Part shown: piece after piece, positions 471-38,738 of the stretch
Numbering within the stretch: position 1 is the first letter of the stretch
Layout: each line of letters begins with the position of its first letter
From: Mobula hypostoma
Taxonomy: Eukaryota
NCBI RefSeq assembly: GCF_963921235.1
Contig: NC_086097.1
Location: 168,146,001-168,210,000, forward strand
Direction: 5' to 3'
Length of the DNA stretch: 64,000 bases
Program-made: the position numbers and the translations under genes
Notes under the pieces: generated by a model
The model's database searches: none
What the model saw: the letters and a program-made list of their open reading frames with translations, nothing else
What the model was told of the DNA's origin: nothing

Positions 471-1460
471 GAGCTTATTGTTGTGTATTTAATATATCAA
501 TAATATTTGAGTAAGATTGTAAATAAACTGTTTGATTAACAATTCTTTATTTGTTTAAATAATTCAGTACGGGTTATATTCTTTATTTAAATAATTCATT
601 ATGGGCTATATGTAAAAGTACATCAATGGTATATGTCATTATATCACCATGTCATAAGTGCGCATTTCACTAAAGTAACGAAGGAAGTAGACACAAGTCA
701 TCCTCAGCTCTCCTGTGTGTTTTTTTTCTTTCAGTTAACTTTTGGAATTACAAAACATAACGGTGATGATGAGTAAGTTTTAAAACAAACCTGAGAAAAC
801 TACCTACCTGTTGAAGCTCAGCGAGATGTGAAGGCGGAGCTTAGGAGAGTTAATGGTGCCTAACGGCGACTCCTTCACTTGCATCTTTGGAGACAGCTCT
901 ATTTCCATCTTTAATATCTCTATTTTTCCCTTTCAAGGTTCTTTTGAAGACCCCGACCTGGAATTACACGCTGACTACGGTTCTTTGCGGGAATGGGACC
1001 CGCTCTCGGGGTTTCACGACTGGCCGTTGTTCGGCATGACAAGGGCTCAGCCTAAGAGCTCTGCTCGCCTTTGGAGGACCAAGTTTTTGTGGTTCTGGAG
1101 AAGGGGGGGATTGGAGGTCGGTGCCTCTGCAGAAGATCGGTGTGTTGTGGGAGCTGGAAGATCTCTGGCTGAGATCTTTGGGCACAGGACTCGGAAAAAG
1201 TGAGGCAACAGACTTTTAACACCGTAAATCAGCAAGTTATTTGTTATGTCTCCCCTCTTGCTGTGAAACGGGGTGGCGGGTGCCAATGCTTTTTTGCTGG
1301 TGGGGGGAGAGGGAATTGTTGCTTGCTGCCGCTTACACTCAAGAGGGAGGGGAGTGGGGGGTACTTTGGAGTTCTAACATTTAACTGTCATCCATTCTTT
1401 GGGGGCACTCCTCTGTTTTCGTTGATGGTTGCGAAGAGAAAGCATTTCAGGATGTATATT

Positions 1461-1645
1461 AAAACAACAGGAATTCTGCAGATGCTGGAAATTCAAGCAA
1501 CACACATAAAAGTTGCTGGTGAACGCAGCAGGCCAGGCAGCATCTCTAGGAAGAGGTGCAGTCGATGTTTCAGGCCCAGACCCTTCATCAGGACCTCTTC
1601 CTAGAGATGCTGCCTGGCCTGCTGCGTTCACCAGCAACTTTTATG
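1461..1645. mobile_element. PLE-derived fold-back mini-element #1
   Basis: Perfect 53-bp inverted arms 1505..1557 / 1593..1645 with a 35-nt spacer; TSD caggatgtat(a/g)tt at 1448..1460 / 1646..1658; arms match the PLE 3' terminus at 39030..39125. Confidence 0.85.
1561..1594 (-). ncRNA. Minimal type I hammerhead ribozyme-like motif (also at 12711..12744)
   Basis: Minus strand GTC-CTGATGA-AGG gtctggg CCT-GAAA-CA-TC-GAC: core boxes, stem I GTC/GAC, stem II AGG/CCT. The stem III CG has decayed to CA. Confidence 0.6.
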
Positions 1646-1884
1646 CAGGATGTATGTTGTATACATTTCTCTGACATTAAATGTACCTTTGAAACCTCTG
1701 ACATGTTTGAGTTAATAAAAAGTGTGGCACATTTTTTTCCTTCAGAGCAGCACATGGTTTCTTTGTAAAAGGCAAGACAATTGAGTTTAAAAAAAGGCAG
1801 AAAAAAGATTAATTTCATAGGTTCATAAACAGAGAGTACTGAGTGATCATAATCATAAATAAATCATGCCATCCGAGTGCAATC

Positions 1885-2221: not shown

Positions 2222-2234
2222 AAAAAAAGCAGAA

Positions 2235-5190: not shown

Positions 5191-6126
5191 CAGCTTGCGA
5201 TTCATTCTAAAGTTGTCTATGTGTGCAGTTTGCACATTCTCCCAGTGCTTTTGCTTCCTCCGACATTCCAGAAAACATACCCATTATTCCGCTAATTGGT
5301 TATTGTAAATTACCCCCAATATATGCAGCAGTTGGAGGGAATGAGTGGGGTGGGTTGTTAACGGGGCATGTGTGAGAGAATAGGGTATCAGGAAAATAAA
5401 TAGGGGAATAGGGATGGGATTGGCCTGTGTACTAGAAATGTCCTGATGAACCAAATAGCTTCCTTGTGTATCATCAAGAAATATGAAAAGTACATGCCAT
5501 TACAGACGAGGAACCACAATCAGAAACTGAACAGATTTTTGTTCCCTCTTTTCCTCTCATCTGTTAGCAGCTCCCATGAAAAGGATTTTACAACAGGAGC
5601 AGTTTAACAGATCAATGACTAAATTGGCAAGTTTGATTTGTCCATTTATACTGTTTGCGTCGACATGTTTCCTTGTCATTCAAAGTGAATACATAATATG
5701 TGGGATCTGAATTTCGTCAGCCAGCCTGCCTTTCCTGCTGATTCTGCATTCAATGGATTTATTGTTTCAATGAGGCAACAGAGAAGCAGCTGCTTCTTTT
5801 GGTGGGTGCACAGCTATTTGAAAAACCGCATTAACAGCTTTACAAATAATCATTATTACCTCCATAGAAGTTTACACTCTGCTAATGCCGTTCATTAATA
5901 TGGATAGGAGTGGACAACTGATGTTGTCCAAGATGGACATAGAATATCCTTAGGAGCAGTTTGAAAGAAGAGGAGGGTTCTCAGCCAATATTTATCACTA
6001 TATTTTCAATCAATATCGCCAAATAGAGAGTATCACATCACATTGTGGGAGCTTTCTGCTCAAAATAATGAAATAAACCACATTGATTTGTTTTCCTTAA
6101 AAACTAAAGTATGTCATTAGCTGGAA

Positions 6127-6320
6127 CACACATCAAAGTTGCTGGTGAACACAGCAGGCCAGGCAGCATCTCTAGGAAGAGGTACAGTCGACGTTTCAGG
6201 CCGAGACCCTCTTGGCCTGAAACGTCGACTGTACCTCTTCCTAGAGATGCTGCCTGGCCTGCTGCGTTCACCAGCAACTTTGATGTGTGTTGCTTGAATT
6301 TCCAGCATCTGCAGAATTCC
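6127..6320. mobile_element. PLE-derived fold-back mini-element #2
   Basis: 78-bp arms 6125..6202 / 6214..6291 with one mismatch and an 11-nt loop; TSD tgtcattag(c/t)tggaa at 6112..6126 / 6321..6335. Confidence 0.88.
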
Positions 6321-6601
6321 TGTCATTAGTTGGAAAATGCTTTAGGACATCAAAGGTTAAAAAGAAGTGCAAGGAGAGGATCACTGTTTAAATATAGTGG
6401 ATCAATCACTGAAAACAGAAATGAGGTGAAACTTTTGTCATTCACAGGGGCATAAGGCTTTGGAACTTCCTGAGATCCAGAGATAATATATGTTTATCAT
6501 ATTGTGTTACATTGCTGGCACCAGCTAGAATAATATTTAGCCAGTAAAATTTAGGCAAGAGAGATGGAAATGCTCCTGGATTCAGCTGTTTCGAGCGGTT
6601 G

Positions 6602-8040: not shown

Positions 8041-8060
8041 ACTGGCCCCCATCACCCTGT

Positions 8061-8745: not shown

Positions 8746-10239
8746 AAGAAGGTACATCAGGTCTGAGCAGAATGAGTCACAGAGTCAGAGAACACTACAA
8801 CACAGAAACTGGCATTTTGTCCAAGTCAGACTATTACTCTGTCTAGTTTCATTGATTGTATCCAGACCCCTTCATACCCCTCAATGCCCCTCAGAGGGTT
8901 TTGGGAAGATCTGAGCGGAGGTCAAACTGGTCGGAGTGGACCTTTAGAATTCTGGCCTCTGAACGAGATCACCTTGGACTTTGGCCCCTGTGATCTAATT
9001 CACACCCATCACCTCTTTAAATGCTAATTGATTTAGATATGCAACAACTTAATTGCCCGAGATTTCAAAGGCCTCCATGATTTCAGTGCTTCTTTATCCA
9101 CCTACTCCCACCCAGCTTAAAAACTCCTTAGGATGTCTGTGCTTCTTCAAGCCAGGCCTCCCGTCTATTCCTGAATTGACCTGATCTACGTGTGGGAACT
9201 GTTGTGTTGTTGGAGGCTGTAATTCACTCCCTAAACTTCTCAGCTTCTCTAGTTTACTTTACAAAAATAGCTGCCACTTTCTAGAAAGGACTGAAGAAGG
9301 GTCTTAGCCTGAAATGGCAACTGTTCACTTCCCTCCATAGATGCTGTCTGACACTTAGGTTCCTCCACCTTTTTGAGTGTTGTTCTTTTGAAGAAATCTT
9401 TGGATTATTTTAAAGACCAAAACTGCTGCTGAGACTGGACATCTGAAATAAAAATTTAAAAATGTTGAAAACACCCAAAGTTCAAAATTCAAAGTAAATA
9501 TATTGTTTAAGTACGTAAATGACACCACGTACAACCTTGAGATTCTTCTTTTTTTGCAGGCATACTCGATAAATCCAATAACCATAATAGAACCAATGAA
9601 AGACCACACCAACTGGGCACTCAACCAGTGTGCAAAAGACTACAAGCTGTGCAAATACAAAAATAATGGAGAAATAATAACAATAATTATTATAAATAAG
9701 CAATAAATATCAAGAACATGAGATGAAGAGTCCTTGAAAATGAGCTTAACAGGTTTGTTACCCAGACATGGAAAGAGAAACAGAGTTAGTGTTTCAGGCT
9801 GGAGCCATTTTGTCAGAACTGGTACAGAGACGAAATTAGTTCATTTTAATTTGATGCGGTGCGGCGATAGTTGAGGGATGAAGGAAATATCACAGAAAGG
9901 GCAAAGCCAAGCCTGTACTGGGGATAAGCTACTGATGAAGTCATCTGATTGATATACCGACATTTCTGTTCATAAAAAGAACCATAGATGCTGGAAATTT
10001 GAAATAAAAACAGGAAATGCTGGCATCCGTGCAGAGAGAAACAGTTAATGCCTCAGCTCAGATTACTGTTTCTCCAGGTGCTGCCTGGCCCACTGACCAT
10101 TATGAGCATTTAGTATTTTTACTTCAGCTCTCTATTTGCATATGGGCTTGGGGTCAGGTCAACACTGGATGATACTTGGCCCTTATTTCCTTTAATGGCT
10201 ACAATTTTCTATATTTCCCAAATCCTGATGGGACATTTA

Positions 10240-12565: not shown

Positions 12566-12661
12566 ATAAAACATTTAATGTCAGAGAAATGTATACAACA
12601 TACATCCTGCATAAAACATTTAATGTCAGAGAAATGTATACAACATACATCCTGCATAAAA
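12566..12661 (-). repeat. Duplication junction: two tandem 45-bp units, inverted copies of 1639..1684 / 12789..12834
   Basis: ataaaacatttaatgtcagagaaatgtatacaacatacatcctgc twice (12566..12610, 12611..12655); reverse complement of ttttatgcaggatgtatgttgtatacatttctctgacattaaatgt. Confidence 0.95.
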
Positions 12662-13384
12662 GTTGCTGGTGAACGCAGCAGGCCAGGCAGCATCTCTAGG
12701 AAGAGGTGCAGTCGATGTTTCAGGCCCAGACCCTTCATCAGGACCTCTTCCTAGAGATGCTGCCTGGCCTGCTGCGTTCACCAGCAACTTTTATGCAGGA
12801 TGTATGTTGTATACATTTCTCTGACATTAAATGTACCTTTGAAACCTCTGACATGTTTGAGTTAATAAAAAGTGTGGCACATTTTTTTCCTTCAGAGCAG
12901 CACATGGTTTCTTTGTAAAAGGCAAGACAATTGAGTTTAAAAAAAGGCAGAAAAAAGATTAATTTCATAGGTTCATAAACAGAGAGTACTGAGTGATCAT
13001 AATCATAAATAAATCATGCCATCCGAGTGCAATCCGGGTCATATTATGATCGAGGAACATGTTTGTAGACTGGATATTGAACTTTTTACTGGTGGACTTC
13101 GGCCATATTCCGCCGAGGTACAACACAAGGCGGCACGGGAGGTCGTTCCTGCCTGTGGCCATCGAACTTGCAGCTGGAGGGTCAGACACCCTGAGCCAAT
13201 AGACTGGTCCTGGACTTATTTTCCATCTGGCATAGTTTGCAGTTTGTTGTTTGATTGTTTGTGGCTTTTGTATTGCTATATTTATGCTCTATTTTTGGTT
13301 GGTGCAGCTGTAACGAAACCCAATTTCCCTCGGGATCAATAAAGTATATCTATCTATCTATCTATCTATCTAAAAAAAGCAGAA

Positions 13385-15806
13385 ATAGCTGGCTACATTG
13401 GAAAGATAGTTACATTTGATTGCTCAAGAGATAACTAGATATTGTATACTGAGTGAATTGAGCAGTATTTTGAAGCAAACTACCTAAGCGAGTGTCAATT
13501 TTACAGAGTGTAAAGGTGGAAGAGCATACAGTTTGCTTTGAAGTTTGAATGCTTTAACCAAACTAGCCAAAACAAGCTTTACTGATATCATGAAAGTAAT
13601 GCAGGAAGATATAGAACCAAAACCATTGTTGATTGCAGAATCCTTTAGGTTTCATAAGCAGAATCACAAGGAAGGGAAGACAATTTCACCTTACACGGCT
13701 AAATTGAAGGAAGTGTCTAAGCATTGCCAGTTCAGTAATGGACTTAATGATACATTGACAGATTTTTCAGTTTGTGAAATCTTACAAGAAAGCATTCAAG
13801 AATGGTTCTCAACTGAAGCACAACTCATTTAAAAGAGCAGGTGAAATTGCAGTATCAATAGAAATAGTAGACAGAGACACAATTGAGTTGCAGTCAGAAG
13901 CGAAAGTGAGAGAGAACAAAATTGCAACAGCTAAATAGAAACTTACCTGGACAAACAAATTTTGTTACCATTGTGGCATGGGCTCACATACACCAGACCA
14001 ATGCAGGTTTAAAGGTGAAACTTACAGAAAATGCAACAAAGTAGAACATATACGAGCATTGTGAGGTCATGATTGGGTGAGACAATTACAACTTGATTGG
14101 AGTTCTATTCACCACTTGTGTGCTACATCCCCTGCAATAGATTCTACTGAAAGCAAATTAAGAAATATATTGGATGATGTCACAGTAGTGTTCAAGGATG
14201 GTATTGGAAAACTTATACATATAAAGGGTAACATTGTGTTAAATGAAAATGCCACTCCCAAGTATTACAAAGCCCATCTGGTTCCTTATACAATCCATGG
14301 TAAAGTAGCCAGTGAGCAAGATTGCATGGAGGCAGTAAGAATTCTTTCCAACGTTGAGTGGAGCCAATGGGCAATGCCAGTGGTCCCAGTATCCAAGAAG
14401 AATGGTTCTGCCAGGCTCTGTGGTGATTTTAAGGTTACCATCAACCCAGTACTGAATGTAGATCAATGCCCACTGCCCAGGATAGCGGATATCTTTGAAA
14501 ACCTTTCTGGAGGAAAAGCAGAAAAGTTAAGTGGATTTATCTGAAGCCTACCTACAGATGGAGATGGAAGAAGAATCCAAAGTGTTTCTCACCATAAACA
14601 CTCACAACGGGCTTTATCACTATAATAGGCTTATATTTGGAGTGGCATCTGCATCTGCACTCTGGCAGAAAGCTGTGGACCAGGTGCTGCAAGGCTGCCC
14701 TGGCACTCAGTGTTACCTGGATGACATCATTGTCATCAATGAAGATGACAAGGAACATTTCCAAAATCTCAAGACAGTGTTAAAAATTAGAAGATTATGG
14801 GCTCAGAGCAGGATGCAACAAGTGTGACTTTTTAAAACCAAGCATCACTTACTGTGGTCACATCATTGATGCACAAGGATTACACAAGTGTGCTGAGAAA
14901 ATTCAAGCAGTGGTGGATGCCTGAATGCCAAAGACAAGTCACAGTTTCGATCCATTTTAGGATTTGTTAGTTACTATATCAGATTCCTGCCAAACCTGAC
15001 TATTTTGCTCCACGCCTTGAACTCATTACTACTGATTGGGTAGAAATGGCATTCAAAAGGGTAAAGAAAATGATGACATCAGACACTGCATTCACATATT
15101 ATGACCATATCATCCTGTGAAGCTTGCCTGTGATGCCTTGCCTTATGATATAGGTGTAGTCATGTCACATGATATGAGTGACAGAAAAGTGAACACCCCA
15201 TAATCTTTGCATCATATTCCTTTACAATCAACAACTAATTTCCATTTTCAATCTACAGAAGAGCGTTCCATTAAATGTGCAGCAGAAACTCTAGTCCCCC
15301 CCAGTTTGACCAGTGCCAGGATGAACGTGCCCTTGATGGAGGTTGTCTTGTGTACGGATTGAGAGTTGTTGTGGAATTCAAGCTGAGAGCTAAAGTGTTG
15401 TACATGTTGGTCATCTGGGTATGGTCAAAGCTTGGTGTGGTTGCCTGGGATAGATCAGCAGATCGTGCAGATTGCCCTGCACTGTTCGGGCTGCCAACAA
15501 GACCGGAAGATGCCAGGAGCATCTAGGAGAAGCAAAAAGAAAGGAGAACAATGGTGTCCTAAGCTGTCAGAACCAGCTTCTGCAGGCCCAGAGTCAACTG
15601 TAAATATATGGTTTTAATTCAGCATTCTCTGTTTAAATAATTCATTATGGGCTATACGTAAACGTACTTAAAAGGCATATGTAATTACATCACCATGTCA
15701 TAAGTGTGCGTCTTGCTAAAGTAAAAATAAAACTAGGCACAAGTTATCCCCAGCTCTCCCGTGTTTTTTTTCTTGCAATTAATTTTTGGAGTTACCAAAC
15801 ATAACA
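13385..15806 (+). mobile_element. Duplicated part of the old Gypsy element (gag-pol remnant + 3' LTR, no 5' LTR)
   Basis: Copy of 2235..4656 at +11150. Confidence 0.85.
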
Positions 15807-17276
15807 CTTCGTATACTCACCACCACTTCATCTCCTCCTTCTCCAGGGAAATTAGAGTTGGTCAATAGATGCTGAGCTAACCAGTGAGGGCAACACCCTG
15901 AAAATGAACAATGAAAATCTGTCCAATATCCACAAGGAACTGTAGTGATAGATGTAAGAAAGCACAATGGTATGCCAGGTGGTGTGACTGTTTCCTCGAT
16001 CCAATACATACAACATTGAACATAGAAATCTACAGCACATTACAGGCCCTTCTGCCCACAATGTTATGATGACCATGTAACCTACTCTAAAAACTACTTT
16101 GAATTACCCTACTGTGTAGCCTCTATTTTTCTAAGTTCTCTTAAAAGACAATATTGTATCCACCTCTACCACTGTTGCTGGCAGTGCATTGCACACACTC
16201 ACCAGTCTGTATGTGAAAAACTTACCTCTGACATTCCCTCAGTACCTACTTTCAAGCACCTTAAAACTATACCCCCTTCTGTTAGCCATTTCAGCCCTGG
16301 GAAAAAGCCTCTGGCTATCCACACGACCAATGCCTCTCATCAGCTTGCGATTCATTCTAAAGTTGTCTATGTGTGCAGTTTGCACATTCTCCCAGTGCTT
16401 TTGCTTCCTCCGACATTCCAGAAAACATACCCATTATTCCGCTAATTGGTTATTGTAAATTACCCCCAATATATGCAGCAGTTGGAGGGAATGAGTGGGG
16501 TGGGTTGTTAACGGGGCATGTGTGAGAGAATAGGGTATCAGGAAAATAAATAGGGGAATAGGGATGGGATTGGCCTGTGTACTAGAAATGTCCTGATGAA
16601 CCAAATAGCTTCCTTGTGTATCATCAAGAAATATGAAAAGTACATGCCATTACAGACGAGGAACCACAATCAGAAACTGAACAGATTTTTGTTCCCTCTT
16701 TTCCTCTCATCTGTTAGCAGCTCCCATGAAAAGGATTTTACAACAGGAGCAGTTTAACAGATCAATGACTAAATTGGCAAGTTTGATTTGTCCATTTATA
16801 CTGTTTGCGTCGACATGTTTCCTTGTCATTCAAAGTGAATACATAATATGTGGGATCTGAATTTCGTCAGCCAGCCTGCCTTTCCTGCTGATTCTGCATT
16901 CAATGGATTTATTGTTTCAATGAGGCAACAGAGAAGCAGCTGCTTCTTTTGGTGGGTGCACAGCTATTTGAAAAACCGCATTAACAGCTTTACAAATAAT
17001 CATTATTACCTCCATAGAAGTTTACACTCTGCTAATGCCGTTCATTAATATGGATAGGAGTGGACAACTGATGTTGTCCAAGATGGACATAGAATATCCT
17101 TAGGAGCAGTTTGAAAGAAGAGGAGGGTTCTCAGCCAATATTTATCACTATATTTTCAATCAATATCGCCAAATAGAGAGTATCACATCACATTGTGGGA
17201 GCTTTCTGCTCAAAATAATGAAATAAACCACATTGATTTGTTTTCCTTAAAAACTAAAGTATGTCATTAGCTGGAA

Positions 17277-17470
17277 CACACATCAAAGTTGCTGGTGAAC
17301 ACAGCAGGCCAGGCAGCATCTCTAGGAAGAGGTACAGTCGACGTTTCAGGCCGAGACCCTCTTGGCCTGAAACGTCGACTGTACCTCTTCCTAGAGATGC
17401 TGCCTGGCCTGCTGCGTTCACCAGCAACTTTGATGTGTGTTGCTTGAATTTCCAGCATCTGCAGAATTCC
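17277..17470. mobile_element. Duplicated copy of fold-back mini-element #2
   Basis: Copy of 6127..6320 at +11150. Confidence 0.88.
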
Positions 17471-17751
17471 TGTCATTAGTTGGAAAATGCTTTAGGACAT
17501 CAAAGGTTAAAAAGAAGTGCAAGGAGAGGATCACTGTTTAAATATAGTGGATCAATCACTGAAAACAGAAATGAGGTGAAACTTTTGTCATTCACAGGGG
17601 CATAAGGCTTTGGAACTTCCTGAGATCCAGAGATAATATATGTTTATCATATTGTGTTACATTGCTGGCACCAGCTAGAATAATATTTAGCCAGTAAAAT
17701 TTAGGCAAGAGAGATGGAAATGCTCCTGGATTCAGCTGTTTCGAGCGGTTG

Positions 17752-18475
17752 TTAGAAACATAGAAAACCCACAGCACAATACAGGCCTATGCTGGACATG
17801 TACTTACTTTAGAAATTACCTAGGGTTACCCATAGCCCTCTGTTTTACTGAGCTCCATATACCTGTCCAGGAGTCTCTTAAAAGACCCTATTGTATCCAC
17901 CTCCACCACCGTCGATGGCAGCCCATTCCATGCACTCACCACTCTCTGCGTAAAAACTTACCCCTGACATCTCCTCTGTACCTATTTCCAAGCACCTTAA
18001 AACTGTGCCCTCTCATGTTAGCCATTTCAGCCCTGGGAGAAAGCCTCTGACTACCCACACGATCAATGCCTCTCATCATCTTATACAGGTCAACTCTCAT
18101 CCTCCGCCACTCCAAGGAGAAAAGGCTGAGTTCACTCAACCTGTTATCGTAAGGCATGCTCCCCAATCCAGGCAACGTCCTTGTAAATCTCCTTTGCACC
18201 CTTTCTATAGTTGCCACATCTTTCCTGTAGTGAGGTGACCAGAACTGAGCACAGTACTCCAAGTGGGGTCTGACCAGGGTCCTATATAATTGTAACATTA
18301 CCCTTTTGCTCCTAAACTCAATCCCACGGTTGATTAAGGCCAATGCATCGTATGCCTTCTTAACCACAGAGTCAACCTGTGCAGCAGCTTTGAGTGTCCT
18401 ATGGACTTGGACCCTAAGATCCCTCTGATCCTCCACACTGCCAAGAGTCTTACCATTAATACTGTATTCTGTCAA
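17752..18475 (-). mobile_element. Duplicated CR1 3' fragment
   Basis: Copy of 6602..7325 at +11150. Confidence 0.9.
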
Positions 18476-21400
18476 TGAAGCACTTAATCTTGTTCTGGAT
18501 TATTATTTTGAGGCCTAGACTAAAACATGAGTTCAAATTGAACACTGGCAGCTGGGAAATTAAAATTCAATGAACTAAATCTGTAATTAAAGCAAGAAAG
18601 CCGGCTTCAGTAATGATGACTACAAGACTGACAGTAAAACCCCATACTGAATGAAAGTGACTCCAGATTCACAGCAGTTAGGTTGTGAGTCAAGGAGGAG
18701 GTACTGGACTTGAGGATACACACTCAACATTTTAGGAACAGCTTTTATTTATTTATTTGTTGATATGCTGCACGAAATAGGCCCTTTGAGCCACACTGCC
18801 CAGCAACCCCTCCCCCGGACGTCATCCGAGCCTAATCATGCGACAATTTACAATGGCCAATTAACCTACTAATTGGTATGCCTTTGAACTGTGGGAGGAA
18901 ACCCATGCAGTCATGTGGAGAATATACAGGCAATGGCAGAAATTGATCCCGGGTCATTGGTACTGTAAAACATTGTACTAATGCCTATGCTACCATGCCA
19001 CCCCATTTTCCTTCAGATTTCTAAACAGTTCATGAACACTACCCCACTATTTTCCTCTCTTTTTGCACTATTTATTTATTATACTGTAGTTTCTTATCGC
19101 TTTTATTTGTTTTACATTGTACTGCTGCCACAAAACAACAAATTTCATGGTTTGTGTCAGTGATAATAAACCTGATTCTGATTCTGAATCACTGGCCCCC
19201 ATCACCCTGTCTCAATAGACAATAGACAATAAGTGCAGGAGTAGGCCATTCGGCCCTTTGAGCCAGCGCCGCCATTCACTGTGATCATGGCTGATCATCC
19301 ACAATCAGTATCCAGTTCCTGCCTTATCCCCATAACCTTTGATTCCACTATCTTTAAGAGCTCTATCCATCTCTTTCTTGAAAGCATCCAGAGACTTGGC
19401 CTCCACAGCCTTCTGGGGCAGAGCATTCCATATATCCACCACTCTCTGGGTGAAAAAGTTTTTCCTCAACTCCATTCTAAATGGCCTACCCCTTATTCTT
19501 AAACTGTGGCCTCCTCCCCCTCTCCAGCTGCTCATCAGCCACACACCCTCCCTTTGGTTCCCTTCCTCACCTTCTTTCCTTAATTCAGCTGTCCACCGTC
19601 TTCTCCTAAAGAGATTTCATTTTCTTCAGTCCTTTGTCACTTCCACCCCTCAGCTCCAAGCTTCTTACCACATTCCCATTGTCCCCTCTCCTTCACCTGC
19701 CTATCATCCTCCCCTCACCTGGATCCACCTATCACCTGCTTCACTCTGCCCTCCCACCAATGTATAGAGGCTATCTCTCTTCTTCCTCTCCAGTCTGAAT
19801 GAAAGACCTCGACTCAAAATGTTGCCTGTACTTTTCCCACCACAAATACTGCCAGAACTTCCTGAGCTCCTCCAGCTCCTTTGAATGTTGCTCAGAAGAA
19901 GGTACATCAGGTCTGAGCAGAATGAGTCACAGAGTCAGAGAACACTACAACACAGAAACTGGCATTTTGTCCAAGTCAGACTATTACTCTGTCTAGTTTC
20001 ATTGATTGTATCCAGACCCCTTCATACCCCTCAATGCCCCTCAGAGGGTTTTGGGAAGATCTGAGCGGAGGTCAAACTGGTCGGAGTGGACCTTTAGAAT
20101 TCTGGCCTCTGAACGAGATCACCTTGGACTTTGGCCCCTGTGATCTAATTCACACCCATCACCTCTTTAAATGCTAATTGATTTAGATATGCAACAACTT
20201 AATTGCCCGAGATTTCAAAGGCCTCCATGATTTCAGTGCTTCTTTATCCACCTACTCCCACCCAGCTTAAAAACTCCTTAGGATGTCTGTGCTTCTTCAA
20301 GCCAGGCCTCCCGTCTATTCCTGAATTGACCTGATCTACGTGTGGGAACTGTTGTGTTGTTGGAGGCTGTAATTCACTCCCTAAACTTCTCAGCTTCTCT
20401 AGTTTACTTTACAAAAATAGCTGCCACTTTCTAGAAAGGACTGAAGAAGGGTCTTAGCCTGAAATGGCAACTGTTCACTTCCCTCCATAGATGCTGTCTG
20501 ACACTTAGGTTCCTCCACCTTTTTGAGTGTTGTTCTTTTGAAGAAATCTTTGGATTATTTTAAAGACCAAAACTGCTGCTGAGACTGGACATCTGAAATA
20601 AAAATTTAAAAATGTTGAAAACACCCAAAGTTCAAAATTCAAAGTAAATATATTGTTTAAGTACGTAAATGACACCACGTACAACCTTGAGATTCTTCTT
20701 TTTTTGCAGGCATACTCGATAAATCCAATAACCATAATAGAACCAATGAAAGACCACACCAACTGGGCACTCAACCAGTGTGCAAAAGACTACAAGCTGT
20801 GCAAATACAAAAATAATGGAGAAATAATAACAATAATTATTATAAATAAGCAATAAATATCAAGAACATGAGATGAAGAGTCCTTGAAAATGAGCTTAAC
20901 AGGTTTGTTACCCAGACATGGAAAGAGAAACAGAGTTAGTGTTTCAGGCTGGAGCCATTTTGTCAGAACTGGTACAGAGACGAAATTAGTTCATTTTAAT
21001 TTGATGCGGTGCGGCGATAGTTGAGGGATGAAGGAAATATCACAGAAAGGGCAAAGCCAAGCCTGTACTGGGGATAAGCTACTGATGAAGTCATCTGATT
21101 GATATACCGACATTTCTGTTCATAAAAAGAACCATAGATGCTGGAAATTTGAAATAAAAACAGGAAATGCTGGCATCCGTGCAGAGAGAAACAGTTAATG
21201 CCTCAGCTCAGATTACTGTTTCTCCAGGTGCTGCCTGGCCCACTGACCATTATGAGCATTTAGTATTTTTACTTCAGCTCTCTATTTGCATATGGGCTTG
21301 GGGTCAGGTCAACACTGGATGATACTTGGCCCTTATTTCCTTTAATGGCTACAATTTTCTATATTTCCCAAATCCTGATGGGACATTTAGTGGAAATAGC

Positions 21401-22349
21401 ACATTAGGAGCACTGATGCACAGGGAAACATTGGAGTGTGTCCATAGCTCCCTGAATGCGTCAGCAAAGGTGGATAAGGTGATGTGGAAGGCATTTCGTA
21501 TGACCGCCTTCATAGGCCGAGGCACTAATTCTAAGAGTTAGGATATCATGTTGCAGTTGTATAAAACATTGCTCAGATTGCATTTGGAGTATTGTGTATA
21601 ATTTTGACAACCACACCATAGACAGCAATAAAGAAAATGTGGAAGATTTAGGAACACTTTCTTTCCCTTTGCCATCAGATTTCTGAATGGTCTATGAGCC
21701 AATGAAAACTCCCCTATTACTCCTGCGTTTACCTCTATTTATTTATCCTTCAAATGTACAGATTTTATGTATTGCTGCCACAAAATAACAAATTACATGT
21801 CATATATCAGTGATAATGAACTTGATTCTGATTTCGAGAAGATTTGCCAGAATGTTGCCTGGTTGTAATAACAAGGAGAGATCAGATAGTCTGTTTATTC
21901 TCACTGGAGCATAGGGGACCAAGGAGTAATCTTATAGAGATTTATAAAATCATGAAGGGCAAATATAGGATAGGCAGTCAGAATATTGTATTTCACAGAG
22001 CAGGGAAATGTAGAGGTTGCAGGCACAGGTTTGAGATAAGATGGGAGAAAGGGTAATTTTTTTCACACAGAAGTGCTGGTTATATGGAATGATCGACTAA
22101 AGGAGGTTGTGGAGTCAGATACTATTACAACAGTTAGCAGGCATTTGGCTGGCAGATGGCATTAGTAGATTTGAATTAGTAGATAATGTGTTTGGTTTAT
22201 CATTGCTAAATGTACCAAGATACAGTGAAAAGCTTGTCTTGCTTGCTGTTTATATAAATCGTTACACAGTGCATTGAGGTAGAACAAGGTAAATCAATAA
22301 CAATGCAGAATAATGTCTTCAGAGAAAGTGCAGAGCAGTAAACAATAAA

Positions 22350-22900
22350 ATGAAGGTCAGATCATAACGCGGTAGATCGTGGGTTCAAAGTCCGTCTTAT
22401 CGTTGGCCAATGTGCTATATCCGGATAATTTGCTTTGCTGTGGGGATACTGTACCTGTCGAGAAGGCGCTGCATAAGCGGCGGTTGTTGTTGTTAAGCAT
22501 CGACGCACGCTAGAGTGCAGCAGAGAGAGAGGAAGAGTGTTGGTGTGTGTGCTGATAGACTCGGGCCACCCATCCGCAGTCCAGCGCAGCAGAGGAGCGG
22601 ATCGGTCAGCGTGCAGGGGGATGGCGGGGTTGGAAGAGAAGGACAGCGAGCAGCTGCTGAAGCAGTGTCTCCACGCGGCGGTAGAGGTGGCGTTGGAGGC
22701 CGGTCAGGTGAGCGTTCAGGTGTCCCGGGTTTCCGGTGACGGGCCACTTCACGCAGTGGCAGCCCAGGCGCCTTTAATCCAACTATGTACTTCAGGAGAT
22801 TAATCTTATATTCAACGGCACATACACATTCTTGTTAGTTTGCAGCGGGGGGGGGGGCTGGTGTGGCGGATGGCTTTATTTTTCTTCTACATCGGGAGCT
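22350..22900 (+). promoter_or_regulatory. CpG-rich promoter/5'UTR of IMPA2 (copy b)
   Basis: Local high density of CpG against a CpG-depleted background around exon 1; GGCCAAT box near 22405; edges approximate. Confidence 0.7.
22621..22707 (+). CDS. IMPA2: Inositol monophosphatase 2, coding exon 1 (downstream copy, 1b)
   Basis: ATG in a CpG-rich context; encodes MAGLEEKDSEQLLKQCLHAAVEVALEAGQ, resembling the IMPA2 N-terminus (..ECFQAAVQLALRAGQ); strong donor CAG|GTGAGC, phase 0. Confidence 0.9.
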
Positions 22901-23717
22901 GTTTTGTAATCCGAAATTATAAAAAAAATTAAGCTAGCTTCTGTTCCGTTTTCTAGACGGACGGTTGGTTAATAATAACGAAAAAGTTTGATTATATTGC
23001 TGAAAACCAGCCTTGTATTAACCATCTACTAGGCCGGAAGGGGGGATGGGGAGTTTGTAAAAGGAACCGCTCGTACGTTATACTGTGTGTCTTTGACATT
23101 TCGAAGAATCTTGTGGGGTTGAACTATTTTTGGTGAGGTTGCTTTCAGATGTTTAGCACCCTTCAATCCACGTTTCTGTAACATATTTGTTGAAAATACA
23201 AACAGGAAGTACGCTAAAGTACCTGTTTTAACAAGAATGCCGTGTACTGCTGTTACCTCGATTGGCTAAGGCGAGCCTTAGACTGATGAATGTCATCAGG
23301 ACCTTGAGATCATACTGCACCATGTTCGTAGTGTGCTGGTTTCTACGCCTGTTCTGAACTACAATCACATTGGCGGTGCTGTAATCTGTTGCATAATTAT
23401 TCTTCTTTGAAACCCTAATGACTATAAGGCAATAAACTGAAGTCTTATGGCAGAATTCTGATCAGCAAGTATAAATTGGTAGCGGTGAGAAAACTTTATG
23501 ATTCCGGAACAGGCGCGATGGCTACAGAAATGTGGGTGTGAGTGGAAGAGAAAGGGCAGAGGTTTTAAGATGTTACGGAGTAAATGCACAGAAAAATGCT
23601 TCCACTTAGAGGGCGTCAGAAGAGCAAGAGTCATCATGGGGGAAAAACGTCTTCAGTCTGAGAGTGGTTTCAGTTAAGACTGCCTGCCCCATGGACGAGT
23701 TTGGAAATAAAACGTTC

Positions 23718-23868
23718 AAAAACAAGAGAAAATCTGCAGGTGTTGGAAATCCAAGCAACACGCACAAAATGCTGGAGGAATTCAGCAGGCTGAACGGTCT
23801 CTGCTCGGCTCTTTTCCATGGATGCTGCCCGGCCTGTGGAGTTCCTCCGGCATTTTGTGTGTGTCGCC
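23718..23868. mobile_element. Older PLE-derived fold-back mini-element at the right duplication breakpoint
   Basis: Imperfect arms ~23755..23792 / ~23830..23867; degenerate TSD ggaaataaaac / ggaaacaatac (23703..23713 / 23870..23880). Confidence 0.7.
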
Positions 23869-24509
23869 AGGAAACAATACATGCCCATTTAAGGAGAGCC
23901 TCGATACCTTATTCCTTATAAGGAAGAAATAGTAAGGTGTACTTGCAAGATTTGGATACAGTGAGGTAAGGAGAAGGCTATCAATTGAAGTTCTTAAGGG
24001 GTGTGACCAGTAGAGTGGATTAATTGATTAATTTGGATTTCCTTCATGGTGTTTTCCCTCTGTTTTTAATTTGTGACTTTGAATTACCACCACATGATCA
24101 ATGCGGGAACACTTGAAAATAGGGAGAATATTGTGAGAGTAGGCAAGTTTAGAATATATGTAAGAAATCAGTTGGGGAAGGGCTAGTTTCAATAGGATGA
24201 GAAACCGATCTCAGGGGTAGTACATGGTGACATATAATAAATTTACTTTGAACTTTGAGAATAGGTTTGGCCCTCTGCGTGTTGGAATCAATGTTTGGCA
24301 GGCAAAATGGGAAGCCTTTAAAATAAGAGTTACTTCTGTTACACTCTTAAGTTATGGTGATTACTTGAGTCTATTAAGATGTTCTCCTAGAGGGTTGTCT
24401 ATTGGTGGGTTCTCAGGTGCTGTAGTAGCTGATCCAGGAGCCACATATTCTGGAGCAATATGGGCAGGAGTAGGTGGTAGCCGTGGTTAGTGGTTGGATC
24501 TTGAGGTTG

Positions 24510-26090: not shown

Positions 26091-27069
26091 ACATGTTGGA
26101 TGGACTGATGTAGGGGTTCTCAAACTGGGGTCCACGGACCCCTTGCTTAATGATAGGGTCCATGGCATAAAAAGGTTGGGAACCCCTAGGTTTATTGCTT
26201 GTCAGGTGAAATTTAATGGCAAGAAGGGTATCATGTTTCATTTTGGTAAGAAAAAGAAGACGCACGATATACTAAAGAATGCGATTCAAAAAGGGTATGA
26301 GAATTGAGAGAGACTTTAGAGTTTTTGTGTGTAGCTTCTTCAAAGTGAAAGGAATAGTTTTAAAAAAAGTGATTTTAAGAAGGCACAAGTTTGTTGTATG
26401 ACACCACTCACTCTGTTGACCTTTCTCACTCCTGTACACCATCTGTGATTTTGCAAATAAAGGTGTTGTTATGGGGGAATTCGTAAATGGTGTTGGAGTT
26501 GTGCTTAGCCACACATTCGTAGGTACAGAAAAAATAGAGCAGGGGGCTGTTTTCATTGCAAATATTAAAATAGTCTTTTTCCTAGTTGGTTCCTTAATAA
26601 ACTGATCAGAAAACAATTCCAATACTTTCTATGAATTCTTGTTCCTTTATTTCCCCAGTTTATGCCATGCTCAAAATGGCCTGCACACAACACCTGTCCA
26701 TTTTTTACTTTTAACTATTTCTTAACTTGACCGTAATTCTACATGGTGATTTGTTGCCCTGCCATGTAGAATGAAGATGATTTGCAAAAGAACCGAAAGT
26801 GAGATGAATATTATTGCACAGTAAGTGGTTAAGGTCCAGAACACTCTGGGGGTGGGGTGGGGAAAATGACAAGTTTTTTCCACACAGAAAGCAGTGGGTG
26901 CCTGGAATAGGCTGTCAGGGTGTAGGTGGAAGCAGAGAATTTAAGAGGCTGTGAGTCAGGCACAGGAAAAGTCAGGGGATGGAGGGTTATGGATTATGAG
27001 TGGGAAGAAGAGAGTTCAGTCTGACCTTGTGATTGGCATGGGCATGGTGGGCCATCGGGCTTGTCCTGT

Positions 27070-29330
27070 CACAAACAGGAGAAAATCTGTAGATGCTGGA
27101 AATCCAAGCAACACACAAAATGCTGGAGAAACTCAGCAGGCCAGGCAGCCTCTGTGGAAAAGAGTACTGATGAAGGGTCACGGCCTGAAACATCAGCTGT
27201 TTACTGTTTTCCATAGATAACACAAAATACTCTGCAGATGCTGGGGTTAAAGCAACACTCACAACACACTGGAGGAACTCAGCAGGTCGGGCAGCATCCG
27301 TGGAAAAGATCGGTCGACATTTCGGGCCGGAACGCTTTGTCAGGACTGTAGAGGGAAGGGGCAGAGGCCCTATAAAGAAGGTGGGGGTGGTGGGAAGGAG
27401 AAGGCTGGTAGGTTCCAGGTGAAAAACCAGTAAGGGGAAAGATAAAGGGGTGGGGGAAGGGTGGCAGGGAGGTGATAGGCAGGAAAGGTGAAGAAGGAAT
27501 AGGGAAAACACAGTGGGTAGTAGAAGGAGGCGGAACCATGAAGGAGGTGACAGGCAGCTGGGGGAGGGGGCAGAGTGACATAGAGATAGGGTAAGGAAGG
27601 GGGAGAGAATTACCAGAAGTTGGAGAAGTCCAAGGGACTGGAGACTACCTAGACGATATATGAGGTGTTGCTCCTCCAACCTGAGTTTGGCCTCATCCTG
27701 GCAGTAGAGGAGGCCAAGTATGGACATATCCGAATGGGAATGGGAAGCAGAGTTGAAGTGGGTGGCAACCGGGAGATCCTGTCTGTTTTGGCAGATGGAG
27801 TGGAGGTGCTCAACGAAGCGGTCCCCCTATCTGCGTCGGGTTTCACTGATGTAGAGGAGGCCACACCGGGAGCACCGGGGTGCAATAGATGACCCCAACA
27901 GACTCAAAAGTGAAGTGTTACCTCACCTGGAAGGACTGTTTGGGGCCCTGAATGGTGGTAAGAGAGGAGGTGTAGGGACAGGTGTAGCACTTGTGCTTAC
28001 AGGGATAAGTGCCAGGTGGGAGATCCGTGGGGATAGACGTGCGGATAAGTGAGTCACAGAGGGACTGATCCCTGCGGAGGGTGGAGAGGGAAAGATGTGC
28101 TTAGTGGTGGGGTCCTGTTGAAGGTAGCAGAAGTTGTGGAGGATAATGTGCCGGATCCGGAGGCTGGTGGGGTGGTATGTGAGGACAAGGGGAACTCTGT
28201 CTCTATTGTGGTGACGGGAAGATGGGGTGAGGGCCGAAGTGCAGGAAATGGAGGAGAAACGGGTGAGGGCATCATTGATGATGGCAGAAGGGAAACCACG
28301 ATCCTTAAAGAAAGAGGACATTTGAGATGTCCTGGAACAGAAAGCCTCATCCTTGGAGCAGATGCAGCAGAGACGGAGGAGCTGGGAATAGGGAATGGTA
28401 TTTTTGCATGCAGCAGGTTGGGAAGAGGTATAGTTGAGGTAGTTATGAGAGTCAGTGGGCTTGTAGAAGATGTCAGTGGACAGTCTGTCTCCAGAGATGG
28501 AGACCGAGAGATCGAGAAAGGGGAGAGAAGTGTCCGAGATAGACCAAGTGAATTTGAGGGCTGGGTGGAAGATTGAAGTAAAGTCGATGAAATTGACGAG
28601 CTCAGCATGGGTGCAGGAAGCAGCACCAATGTAGTCGTCAATGTAGTGAAGGAAAAGTTGGGGAGCAGTACCAGAATAGGTTTGGAGCACAGACTGTTCC
28701 ACATAACCAACAAAGAGGCAGGCATTTCTGGGGCCCATGCGAGTGCCCATAGTTACACCCTTGGTCTGAAGAAAGTGGGAAGAGCCAAAAAAGAAATTAT
28801 TAAGTGTGAGTACCAGTTCTGCCAACCGGAGGAGGGTAGTTGTGGTGGGGAACTGGTGAGATCTATTGTCCAGAAAGTAGCGGAGGGCTTTGAGGCCTTC
28901 TTGATGGGGAATGGAGGTGTATAGGGATTGGACATCCATAGTGAAAATGAAGCGGTCGGGACCGGGCAACTGGAAGTTATTGAAGAGGTGGAGGGCATGA
29001 GATGTATCCCGGATGTAGGTGGGAAGGGACTGAATTATGGGTGACAAAAATGGAGTCCAGGTGGGCAGATACAAGTTCGGTGGGACAGGAGCAGGCAGAA
29101 ACTATGGGTCTACCGGGACAGTCAGGCTTGTGGATCTTGGGGAGGAGGTAAAACCGAGCAGTACGGGGTGTGGGAATTATGAGTTTAGCGGCTGAGGATG
29201 GAAGGTCTCCGGAGTTGATACGGGCGGTGATGGTACAGGTTTCCATAGATGCTGCCTGGCCTGCTGAGTTTCTCTAGCATTTTGTGTGTGTTGCTTTGGA
29301 TTTCCAGCATCTGCAGACTTTCTCATGTTT
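27070..29330. mobile_element. PLE-derived fold-back mini-element #3, split by a nested PLE (own sequence 27070..27218 + 29251..29330)
   Basis: Inverted arms on either side of the nested PLE; hammerhead core CTGATGA-AGG..CCT-GAAA at 27167..27190; perfect TSD gggcttgtcctgt at 27057..27069 / 29331..29343. Confidence 0.8.
27219..29239 (-). mobile_element. Penelope-like element, 5'-truncated (RT + GIY-YIG endonuclease, frameshifted)
   Basis: FYLLPKIHK..PGRPIVS, FTMDVQSLYTSIP, KGVTMGT, HYIDD, FLDL, YKPTDSH motifs; TSD tttccatagat at 27208..27218 / 29240..29250. Confidence 0.93.
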
Positions 29331-29971
29331 GGGCTTGTCCTGTGCTGTACTGTTCTATTAATGGGTTCCTCTTGTGCAGTTGCCATTCTGTGAGCTCATG
29401 TGCTTCAAAATTCTTGCATGTTTTACTTCTCAATCCTTGAAAAGCAGCTATAGGGATATTAGCTGTGTTTCTCACTTTGTGGCATTATCAGCTTCCTGTG
29501 TCAGCAGCTTGTCAGGCAAAAATTATTGAAAGGGTAAACATGCAAGATCAACCAATAGCAGACACCATCGGGTTCACACTTGCAGCACCGTGCGAAAGAT
29601 AAACAAGCAAATACAAAGATCGAGATTTGTCTGGTATTAACAGCATCTGTTTTGAGGTAAATGTATCCTTGAGAGATTTTGATATTTATAATTCTTTTGC
29701 CTGGCAAAATGTTATGAATTGAAACTAGCAAAATTGCAATGAGGCTTGTGAAATTAACACTTCAGTTTCTGAAGGTAGATCTATTAAGGCATAATTAAAT
29801 ATCAAACATTGAAGGAAATGGAGAGGTAAAGAAAGAGGAGGGACATATGGAGGGATCACAGCAGAGGCACCTTATAGTTATTAAACAAATTAAAGGTGTG
29901 CATGACTTTTTATGCATTTGAGAGATGTGGGCTTCACAGGCTAATCCATCAATAATTTGCTCATTCCTAAT

Positions 29972-32650: not shown

Positions 32651-33945
32651 TTGGTGTGACAAATGGCATTACGGTATTTGGGCAAGTTAAGGGGAATGTA
32701 GTTTGAGGTAGAATTAGGGATTTTCAAGTTACTTCATGTACCTAATGGCGGTGGGGAAGAAGCTGTTGTTGACCCTTGATCTGTTCTTCTACGTTCCAAA
32801 CCTATTCTGGTATCTGTCCCCCACTTTTCCTTCGCTACATTGACGACTGCATTCGCGCTACTTCCTGCACACATGCTGAGCTCGTTGACTTCATTAACTT
32901 TGCCTCCAACTTTCACCGTGCCCTCAAGTTTACCTGGTCCATTTCCGACACCTCCCTCCCCTTTCTAGATCTTTCTGTCTCTATCTCTGGAGACAGCTTA
33001 TCTACTGATGTCTACTATAAGCCTACTGACTCTCACAGCTATCTGGACTATTCCTCTTCTCACCCTGTCTCTTGCAAAAATGCCATCCTCTTCTCGCAAT
33101 TCCTCTGTCTCCGCTGCATCTGCTTTCAGGATGAGGCTTTTCATTCCAGGACGAGGGAGGTGCCTTCCTTTTTTAAAGAAAGGGGCTTCCCTTCCTCCAC
33201 CATCAACTCTGCTCTCAAACGCATCTTCCCCCATTTCACGTACATCTGCTCTCACTCCATCCTCCTGCCACCCCACTAGGAATAGGGTTCCCCTTGTCCT
33301 CACCTACCACCCCACCAGCCTCCGGGTCCAACATATTATTCTCCGTAACTTCCGCCACCTCTAACGGGATCCCACCACTAAGCACATCTTTCCCTCCCCC
33401 CCCCCCGCTTTCCACAGGGGTCGCTCCCTTCGCGACTGCCTTATGCATTCATTCCCCCCCATCCCTCCCCACCAATCTCCCTTCTGGCACTTATCCTTGT
33501 AAGCAAAGCAAGTGCTACACATGCCCTTACACTTCCTCCCTTACCACCATTCAGGGCCCCAGACAGTCCTTCCAGGTGAGGCGACACTTCACCTGTGAGT
33601 TGGCTGGGGTGAAATACTGCGTCCGGTGCTCCCGATGTGGCCTTCTATATATTGGCGAGACCCGACGCAGACTGGGAGACCGCTTTGCTGAACACCTACG
33701 CTCTGTCCGCCAGAGAAAGAAGGATCTCCCAGTGGCCACACATTTTAATTCCACGTCCCATTCCCATTCTGATATGTCTATCCATGGCCTCCTCTACTGT
33801 AAAGATGAAGCCACACTCAGGTTGGAGAAACAACACCTTATATTCCGTCTGGGTAGCCTCCAACCTGATGGCATGAACATTGACTTCTCAAACTCCTGCT
33901 AATGCCCCACCTCCCCCTCGTACCCAATCTGTTATTTATTTATAT

Positions 33946-34804
33946 TGTTACGTACCCCGTAACTGGGTTGCCAAACCAGCAGAAATGGATCACTCAGTTG
34001 GAGTCTGGAGTACTAGAACTAAGAAAGTTTTATTAAAGAAACAAGCAACACAGTAATCGAAAGGATAATAAATGCAACAATTCAACAATGATAACCACAC
34101 ATGTGCACAGAATTAAGATAACAGCATCAATCAAGCTCTATCGTTGTCTAGGGGTAAATGACCAATTTCAAAATGACTCAAAGTTCAGTCCAGTTAGTAG
34201 TCCAGTTCGCAGTAATCGTTGCCATGGCGATGGACAAGGTGGGGGAAGAGAGACATAGAATAGGAACAACTGATCATTCAGAACGGCTTCACTCGCAGAC
34301 CAGCGAGATGGCTCACAAACAGCATTTGGGCGGGTCCTTGGTGATGTCACCTGAGGTCACCGACTGTGACCCCTCCTCCAGATGCGGTCGATCCTCTGCA
34401 GTGAACCCGGCACCCAGGCAAGGGCGGACACACACCGGGTTCCCGCTGATCGTACCTTTCCACCCTTGTCGTTGTCTGGCACTTCTCACCCACTCGTGAG
34501 AGGCGCACCGCTTCCAGGGTCTCGTTACCTCGGGTGGCGTGTGTGTCTGTCTTAGCGAACCTGTCCCTTTTTATCCCCCTGCTGGGGTATCGCCTGTCCA
34601 TCACTTCAAACAGTTCAGGGTTCAAAGGGGGGAGCCGCTCCAGACAGCTCTTCCTCCCACATCCCTTCATTACACATCTCCAGACGCTGCTCCATTGTTC
34701 CTTATCTCTCCTTCCCCTGAGGGCAGGTGGCAGACCAACTGCTGATGCCACTGATGCTAGCCCAGGCCAGCAAACATCTTAATTTTATGTGTATTCTCGT
34801 AACA
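33946..34804 (-). repeat. 3' LTR (859 bp)
   Basis: Preceded on the minus strand by the PPT; minus-strand AATAAA near 34029..34034. Confidence 0.95.
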
Positions 34805-34816
34805 CTTCCCCCCTTT
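34805..34816 (-). promoter_or_regulatory. Polypurine tract
   Basis: Minus strand AAAGGGGGGAAG immediately before the 3' LTR. Confidence 0.9.
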
Positions 34817-34976
34817 AAGGATTTTTACCGGGAGGTAAAAATTACAAACATGACTACATTATCTGATACATACACAATATACATCTTTAACAGTTATTTA
34901 GCTAATACAGAGAATTTGAAGCTGTCAACACCTTGACAGACAGTCATCACATTTTCTGTTCCTTTTACACGTGTTA

Positions 34977-37781: not shown

Positions 37782-37857
37782 TTCTGCTGTTTGTCTTTTC
37801 TTTCTTTCGGGAATTTTAACCCAATCAATTTACTCCGTCCCAAATTTAGCGTTCAAA

Positions 37858-37875
37858 ATCCCGGACGAGCCCCCA
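37858..37875 (-). promoter_or_regulatory. Primer-binding site for tRNA-Pro
   Basis: Minus strand TGGGGGCTCGTCCGGGAT, 4 nt after the 5' LTR; complementary to the tRNA-Pro 3' end ATCCCGGACGAGCCCCCA. Confidence 0.93.
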
Positions 37876-37879
37876 CTTA

Positions 37880-38738
37880 TGTTACGTACCCCGTAACTGG
37901 GTTGCCAAACCAGCAGAAATGGATCACTCAGTTGGAGTCTGGAGTACTAGAACTAAGAAAGTTTTATTAAAGAAACAAGCAACACAGTAATCGAAAGGAT
38001 AATAAATGCAATAATTCAACAATGATAACCACACATGTGCACAGAATTAAGATAACAGCATCAATCAAGCTCTATCGTTGTCTAGGGGTAAATGACCAAT
38101 TTCAAAATGACTCAAAGTTCAGTCCAGTTAGTAGTCCAGTTCGCAGTAATCGTTGCCATGGCGATGGACAAGGTGGGGGAAGAGAGACATAGAATAGGAA
38201 CAACTGATCATTCAGAACGGCTTCACTCACAGACCAGCGAGATGGCTCACAAACAGCATTTGGGCGGGTCCTTGGTGATGTCACCTGAGGTCACCGACTG
38301 TGACCCCTCCTCCAGATGCGGTCGATCCTCTGCAGTGAACCCGGCACCCAGGCAAGGGCGGACACACACCGGGTTCCCGCTGATCGTACCTTTCCACCCT
38401 TGTCGTTGTCTGGCACTTCTCACCCACTCGTGAGAGGCGCACCGCTTCCAGGGTCTCGTTACCTCGGGTGGCGTGTGTGTCTGTCTTAGCGAACCTGTCC
38501 CTTTTTATCCCCCTGCTGGGGTATCGCCTGTCCATCACTTCAAACAGTTCAGGGTTCAAAGGGGGGAGCCGCTCCAGACAGCTCTCTCTCCCACATCCCT
38601 TCATTACACATCTCCAGACGCTGCTCCATTGTTCCTTATCTCTCCTTCCCCTGAGGGCAGGTGGCAGACCAACTGCTGATGCCACTGATGCTAGCCCAGG
38701 CCAGCAAACATCTTAATTTTATGTGTATTCTCGTAACA
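37880..38738 (-). repeat. 5' LTR (859 bp)
   Basis: TG...CA ends, adjacent to the PBS; about four substitutions versus the other LTR, counted by eye. Confidence 0.95.

Follow-up and report, generated by a model that had tools for sequence, protein, structure and literature searches.

Hairpin insertions in Mobula hypostoma composed of the 3' ends of Neptune-type Penelope-like elements in inverted pairs

Introduction

Penelope-like elements (PLEs) are known to insert as complex units, and in the available text of four sources (PMC8557442, PMC3846280, PMC2377424, PMC8969392) an inverted truncated copy plus a tail within one target-site duplication (TSD) is a standard arrangement. An optional tail of 30-40 bp on one side of the insertion is described in the accessible part of PMC8557442, which also calls the origin of tandem and inverted PLE structures unresolved, and complex PLE insertions in the rotifer carry a TSD of 8-10 bp round the whole unit. 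For the anole Poseidon element PAc, in vitro work (PMC11167929, available sections) reports that both target strands are nicked and extended, with two internal RT start sites that bound the tail, that ribozyme mutants insert normally and that no RNA reads end at the cut. Minimal hammerhead ribozymes are described in the available parts of PMC4209133 as requiring dimers and cleaving weakly, and the same parts place the end of an intron of Drosophila Penelope at the 5' edge of helix I and report dual hammerheads ~100-700 bp apart on opposite strands in Schistosoma. Inverted repeats of Drosophila Penelope give rise to siRNAs (PMC3681739, as excerpted).

The insertions described here lie in a window of 64,000 nt (the whole stretch of DNA analysed: Mobula hypostoma, RefSeq assembly GCF_963921235.1, contig NC_086097.1, positions 168,146,001 to 168,210,000 of the forward strand). 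A reading made from the letters alone (the sequence-only reading) had proposed that it holds short fold-back insertions made of PLE 3' ends, and their arms, RNA fold and TSDs confirm that these are real. They resemble the complex insertions of EN+ PLEs in their outward-facing 3' termini, one-sided tail, single TSD and copy-variable inverted repeats, all 4 copies having the inversion and the TSD and 3 of them the tail asymmetry; they differ from the published insertions, as far as the excerpted sources go, in that both copies are 50-135 nt long and ORF-less and meet through a short loop in a tight hairpin, and in the TSDs of 13-15 bp given for the fold-backs here. Judged by sequence, the fold-backs represent the known "inverted copy plus tail" insertion of PLEs at its smallest, and the structure as such is not new.

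Other systems offer partial likenesses. The two groups of outer ends seen here recall the two RT start sites of PAc, in which cleavage is likewise not needed, whereas PAc belongs to the Poseidon clade, its ORF starts inside the hammerhead, and the work on it does not extend to cDNA joining or a 5' stop site (PMC11167929, available sections). The motif itself is the same minimal type I hammerhead as in PMC4209133, the accessible parts of which, unlike the present work, contain neither TSD-bounded hairpin insertions nor junction mapping. In L1 twin or dual priming (PMC2837659, in part), both nicks similarly prime and two cDNAs are joined internally between TSDs, but priming in L1 takes place at poly(A) or wherever an internal site happens to serve, and the dual form is a postulate there, while here the two fold-back arms repeat one terminal sequence. 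Non-LTR retrozymes (bioRxiv 10.64898/2026.07.22.740005, PMC7229834; available text) are also non-coding, hammerhead-bearing and PLE-derived, but they are head-to-tail tandem units with complete ribozymes, whereas the fold-backs are inverted and show the core pattern in 2 of 4 copies, both with a decayed triplet, and no core in the other 2. Palindromic PLE scraps were not found in the available part of PMC5753468, nor did we find a paper specifically on PLE hairpins of cartilaginous fish that lack an ORF, although an earlier description may exist; pattern scans of metagenome, viral and prokaryote genome collections returned 0 loci. In copies this small, ~200 bp holds the two termini, the junction and the TSD, and PLE ends are dense, so that a census could directly test models of dual priming, of snap-back synthesis and of ribozyme action.

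Results

The parent element and its truncated copies

Two 5'-truncated coding PLEs lie in the window. One is an RT fragment on the minus strand (27219..29239; RVT_1, E 8e-6), nested in one of the fold-backs, with an 11/11 TSD and no inverted partner; the other, on the plus strand (32781..39134), holds RT, a Cys-rich linker and GIY-YIG (E 5e-4) within a 13-bp TSD, and its 3' end is the coordinate reference for all arms. Both Pfam matches fall just below the curated cut-offs; relatives of the coding copies are 687-1358 aa long, with identity up to 56%, and many carry RT plus GIY-YIG. Within the ORF at 33177-33902 we read by eye a Cys-x4-Cys-x2-Cys pattern upstream of GIY-YIG, and a Cys-rich linker between RT and endonuclease is a Neptune-type feature (PMC8557442, accessible part). 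With RT, GIY-YIG, Cys-rich linker and minimal hammerhead all present, the parent classes by these sequence features as an EN+ PLE of the Neptune type. An LTR retrotransposon (33946-38738) splits the second coding copy in its 3' UTR; it has 859-bp LTRs that are 99.5% identical and a 950-aa ORF with SCAN and zinc-knuckle domains.

A profile search for PLE ends in the window gave 32 matches, which reduce to 15 independent insertions after removal of 9 second copies within a tandem duplication and 2 matches with E above 4, a density of ~1 per 3.5 kb (15 in ~53 kb of non-duplicated window). These comprise 4 clear fold-backs, 1 old one, 1 possible decayed one, 3 short non-inverted scraps and 6 others that extend into the 3' UTR or ORF. 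Because the 15 run from fold-backs to copies reaching UTR or ORF, the fold-backs are one extreme of a range of truncated copies, and these belong to at least 3 subfamilies. A pair of dispersed inverted repeats (46047-46228 and 51016-51197, ~72% alike) has no match to the PLE-end profiles.

Four young hairpins and their older relatives

Positions are counted from +1, the first base after the predicted GUC cut of the hammerhead, and junctions were read by eye. The arms of the fold-backs are 74-96% identical to the coding-copy 3' end. The clearest case (locus 2, 6127-6320) is an 82-bp near-perfect hairpin formed by two outward-facing 3' ends of the Neptune-type PLE: an inverted arm (6127..6209, minus strand, about -21 to +63) ending in the short, tail-less terminus adjoins a forward arm (6209..6323, plus strand, -17 to about +97) ending in the long terminus with tail, between TSD copies of 15 bp at 6112..6126 and 6321..6335 (plus strand) that agree at 14/15. 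The segments 6125-6206 and 6210-6291 are complementary at 98% over 82 nt, the predicted RNA fold has -170.7 kcal/mol (z = -25; 0 of 200 shuffles equally stable), and the CUGANGA core is missing from the forward arm. An Rfam match to mir-5681 at 6176-6240 reached 55 bits against a gathering score of 88, over letters common with the hairpin terminus; we dropped this identity as a below-threshold, generic match to a perfect hairpin and treat it as chance.

Locus 1 (1461-1645; 1448..1658 with its 13-bp TSD, 12/13) joins an inverted arm from -31 to +102, which holds a decayed hammerhead core, to a forward arm from +7 to +59, with a stem matching at 53/53. On its minus strand (1505-1645) the whole hammerhead core lies in the loop of the 53-bp stem, with the cleavage triplet decayed. 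Locus 4 (27070-29330; 27057..29343 with a perfect 13-bp TSD, 13/13) has arms from about +5/+8 to +103 and from -32/-28 to +103 with the nested PLE inside. Locus 3 (about 23716-23869; 23703..23882 with a degenerate TSD, 9/11), in the putative first intron of an IMPA-like gene, is older and of a second subfamily, with arms from +31 to about +105 and from -14 to +67 that are alike at 33/41 only, one of them being closer to locus 4 (66/73). An older decayed fold-back of a third subfamily (9978..10128) was absent from the sequence-only reading. The structure has arisen in at least 3 subfamilies and ages. At 59170-59340 an old PLE end with ~45 nt of 3' UTR lies next to 23 nt of inverted hammerhead edge; the pair may be a decayed fold-back, one arm of which would extend to -75. 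Among the non-inverted scraps, an 89-bp copy (40905..40993, minus strand) runs from -32 to the short terminus with a TSD of 11/13 and one extra 5' G.

A single TSD encloses both arms at 4 loci. The TSD lengths first given (13, 15 and 13 bp and one degenerate) hold, except that the degenerate one sits at locus 3 and not at locus 4; comparison at each locus also upheld their likeness in length to the TSDs of the coding PLEs (11 and 13 bp). Among random boundary pairs (n = 3000 trials), 13 bp with at most 1 mismatch arose in 0/3000 and 11 bp with at most 2 mismatches in 1.5%. That two independent insertions hit one site, or that the hairpins are assembly artefacts, would agree with the divergence of the locus 3 arms from each other, but this has a near-negligible probability given the one TSD round both arms at four loci, the post-insertion differences between arms (CpG-type in locus 2) and the occurrence of strand-change joints, described below, in separate runs of organisms A and B.

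Outer ends and a probable route of integration

The outer ends fall into two groups, at +59 to +67 and at about +97 to +107, with one arm per group in 3 of 4 copies and the long end twice in locus 4. Where they differ (3 of 4 copies), one arm stops 30-43 nt short of the other at its outer end, the left arm in locus 2 and the right arm in both locus 1 and locus 3, and the +59 to +67 position also closes the non-inverted scrap at 40905. By analogy, the two groups would be the optional PLE tail, matching in their position pattern the two internal RT start sites.

We consider it probable, with some reserve, that the hairpins are dead-on-arrival insertions of the Neptune-type PLE in which both nicks primed on uncleaved RNA and the two cDNAs were joined, a reading whose in vitro support comes from a Poseidon-clade element while the element here is of Neptune type. 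On this account, the GIY-YIG endonuclease would nick both target strands 11-15 bp apart, as the TSDs suggest, and each 3'-OH would prime RT on uncleaved PLE RNA. Priming would occur at either of two internal start sites that lie ~35-40 nt from each other, which would set the outer end near +60/+65 or +100/+105. Both cDNAs would end after 50-135 nt, often at the hammerhead 5' edge, which might be the RNA 5' end or a structural RT stop, and their ends would then join through 0-3 nt of microhomology, with fill-in synthesis to complete the unit, as in L1 dual or twin priming. The product would be two outward-facing 3' ends inside one TSD, because priming is from both nicks; the earlier proposal of priming on both target strands draws support from these outward 3' ends and from TSDs equal to those of the coding PLEs. 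The account also gains from the offset of the outer ends in 3 of 4 copies, from arms that pass the predicted cut in all 4, from the spread of subfamilies and ages, and from the letters that the two arms have in common within locus 1 and within locus 2; the low likeness of the locus 3 arms to each other counts against it. The junctions of loci 1-4 carry 2, 1, 3 and 0 or 3 nt of microhomology; the sum of 6 nt has p = 0.08 and the 9 nt of the other locus 4 reading p = 0.008, a weak signal.

A different course, in which one primed and truncated cDNA folds back at a microhomology, copies itself toward the terminus and joins the other target end, would account for variant letters common to the arms within loci 1 and 4 (in locus 1 a variant that makes up 27% of contig depth in X2, locus 2 having the other letter in both arms; in locus 4 a common change from the loose-end consensus). 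The junctions also lie within self-complementary hammerhead stems, which could help folding, and at loci 1 and 4 they connect the two strands found together at the open end of stem I. We nevertheless hold such snap-back synthesis to be unlikely: the recurring +59 to +67 outer end, on either side, fits a second priming site better than a random stop, and both strands are extended in vitro (PMC11167929, available sections). Switching guided exactly by stem I was dropped as a candidate, since it predicts junctions that exceed the observed ones at loci 1 and 4 by 5-7 nt. Differences between the locus 2 arms are post-insertion and CpG-type. The arms are compatible with one template or with two.

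Junctions lie at the hammerhead, with arms that cross its predicted cut

The reference copy of the minimal type I hammerhead motif (38995..39033, plus strand) is mutated, and majority letters in the contigs restore an intact core and GUC triplet (39005 A>G 69%, 39027 T>C 77%, X2 depth), so that the cut is predicted at 39027/39028. Core, stem II, GAAA and a palindromic triplet region are readable in the sequence and majority letters; Rfam gave 7 matches in the window, none of them a hammerhead. The inner ends lie at -31/+7 (locus 1), -21/-17 (locus 2), +31/-14 (locus 3) and +5..+8/-32..-28 (locus 4), which agrees with the earlier statement that the fold-back points lie in or beside the hammerhead motif, all being near the predicted cut.

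The sequence-only reading further held that the arms were copied from short RNAs whose 5' ends came from hammerhead cleavage, and this part fails: each of the 4 young copies has an arm that begins 14-32 nt before the cut (both arms in locus 2), none of their 8 arms starts at +1, and bases upstream of +1 are absent from a 3' cleavage product and so could not be copied from it. Among the joints and loose ends listed for the contigs of four runs, none begins at 39028. Every junction being close to the motif speaks for cleavage, and the short arms of loci 1 and 4, which start at about +5 to +8, could come from cleaved RNA trimmed at joining. Set against the longer arm beyond the cut in every copy, the missing starts at +1, the dispensability of cleavage for the anole PLE in vitro (PMC11167929, available sections) and the description of minimal hammerheads as dimer-dependent, poor cleavers (PMC4209133, accessible parts), we regard the cleavage model as improbable; a mixed origin could apply, with cleaved RNA as the source of the short arms at loci 1 and 4 alone. 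We infer that the ribozyme marks the boundary and that the template was not made by its cleavage. The idea of a separate ribozyme-defined non-autonomous system is likewise not borne out, since the structure is the short end of the published PLE insertion pattern and none of the 8 arms has its 5' end at the cut.

Hairpins probably made anew rather than a fixed family

MITEs have fixed termini and a short TSD of fixed length set by the transposase. The fold-backs have varying termini (+59 to +105) and TSDs of 11-15 bp with unrelated sequences, and the earlier view that they are not a fixed MITE stands on differing outer ends, subfamilies and TSD sequences together with TSD lengths as in the coding PLEs. 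The accompanying claim that the fold-back point differs in each copy does not hold: when locus 1 is read on its minus strand, its junction is equivalent to that of locus 4 and uses the same dinucleotide, so that 2 of the four fold-backs have a common internal junction across subfamilies, in a sample of four copies only. Because these two loci differ in subfamily (~80% alike) and in outer ends, a hotspot is the more likely source of the equivalent junction than a common master copy.

We compared the linear end at 38870-39500 with the contigs of four runs (78,500, 67,279, 6,917 and 15,775 contigs), a comparison in which summed depth is no copy number, X2 counts are incomplete and perfect palindromes may break contigs. 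At least 3 of 33 joints (among the 15 listed) change strand: 38999/39099, 39002/39047 and 39065/39108. Each of the three occurs in one contig, at depth 44-63, where unique flank has 41.9 in X6 and 12.1 in X1, and each of the 15 of 33 joints listed for the four runs is likewise confined to a single contig, which speaks weakly against a fixed junction at high copy number. Some fold-backs might still amplify as units, with a transcribed master hairpin giving rise to SINE- or MITE-like daughters that keep its junction. The equivalent junction of loci 1 and 4 would suit this, and the X1 strand-change joint 39002/39047 could be of the same type seen through a diverged reference; yet we find it very improbable with those loci in subfamilies only ~80% alike and with unlike outer ends, with TSDs that are long and variable in length and sequence, and with the best-supported X6 joints at depth 30-78 against 41.9 for unique flank.

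A preferred 5' edge near -32

Two fold-backs (loci 1 and 4) and two scraps (40905-40993 and a degenerate one at 41383), together four of nine short copies, begin at -31 to -33 (profile positions 411-413), within stem I of the hammerhead, on its 5' strand. Four of nine short ends within 5 nt give p = 0.006 under a uniform null in a post hoc test, and p = 0.11 (3 of 9) when the degenerate copy is dropped; the nine ends leave out the 6 insertions reaching the 3' UTR or ORF, one of which (9769-9823) was judged by eye and is placed by the profile to start at about -35. Two of the three strand-change joints have one end at -29 or -26, and -32 (38996) is among the top loose-end places in 3 of 4 runs (X2, X6 and X10, with 293, 246 and 188 contigs), where agreement is 0.40-0.41, as at true 3' ends. 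The loose-end consensus there resembles the pyrimidine tract of other subfamilies, and part or all of this peak may be the limit of subfamily homology; the possible arm to -75 at 59170-59340 may be a counter-example to a strict limit at -32.

Just before stem I, at 38970-38999, lies a branch-point-like sequence with a pyrimidine-rich tract ending in AG, the tract being retained in other subfamilies. It overlaps what we take to be an initiator-like motif at about -32, the hammerhead 5' edge, and is itself presumably splice-acceptor-like. Going by position and sequence, the 5' edge is most likely a transcript start or an RT stop. That the edge near -30 is instead a splice acceptor, made by the pyrimidine tract and AG, has a precedent at the same edge in Drosophila Penelope (PMC4209133, accessible parts) but ranks below a transcript start or RT stop, the scrap at 40905-40993 having its TSD directly at the edge and no upstream exon.

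We put forward tentatively, as a reading with the odds against it, that the scraps are "strong-stop" products, the transcript starting at the hammerhead 5' edge and yielding 90-135-nt cDNAs bounded by the cap. If this were true, the transcript leader would carry both internal RT start sites, with priming from one or both nicks, and cap-bounded cDNAs would insert alone (as at 40905-40993) or as fold-backs. In full-length PLEs, such a product fused to a long cDNA would account for the inverted pLTR, and a single mechanism for the tandem and inverted architecture of PLEs would be readable from tens of thousands of copies, with leftover hairpins seeding host rearrangements like the 11-kb duplication described next.

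Hairpins at an 11-kb duplication with a putative host first exon

The second unit of the tandem duplication occupies 12655..23713 (plus strand) and the first 1505-12573; they differ by 0 substitutions and a single internal 9-bp indel. The duplication runs from inside the locus 1 hairpin to the left TSD of locus 3, and the second copies of loci 1 and 2, at 12655 and 17277, are not independent because of this duplication. At the junction (12566..12661), the right flank of locus 1 appears inverted in two 45-bp copies, head to tail, which lead into the locus 1 hairpin, where the forward strand is regained, with short microhomologies, an arrangement that serial template switching at hairpins would leave. 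The duplication may be a very recent real event or an artefact of chimeric reads or haplotypes in the assembly.

An inositol monophosphatase exon (39399-39532, plus strand; Pfam Inositol_P) is covered by a deep contig in run X1, and we take the gene to be IMPA2. Intronic hairpins, loci 3 and 4 being the putative cases here, are potential double-stranded RNA. The hairpins also appear to anchor the recent duplication of the host gene's first exon: a putative first exon, proposed on its start codon, donor and phase, is present in both duplicate copies (11471-11557 and 22621-22707, plus strand). The sequence upstream of it is duplicated too, and its donor site is followed closely by the 9-bp indel.
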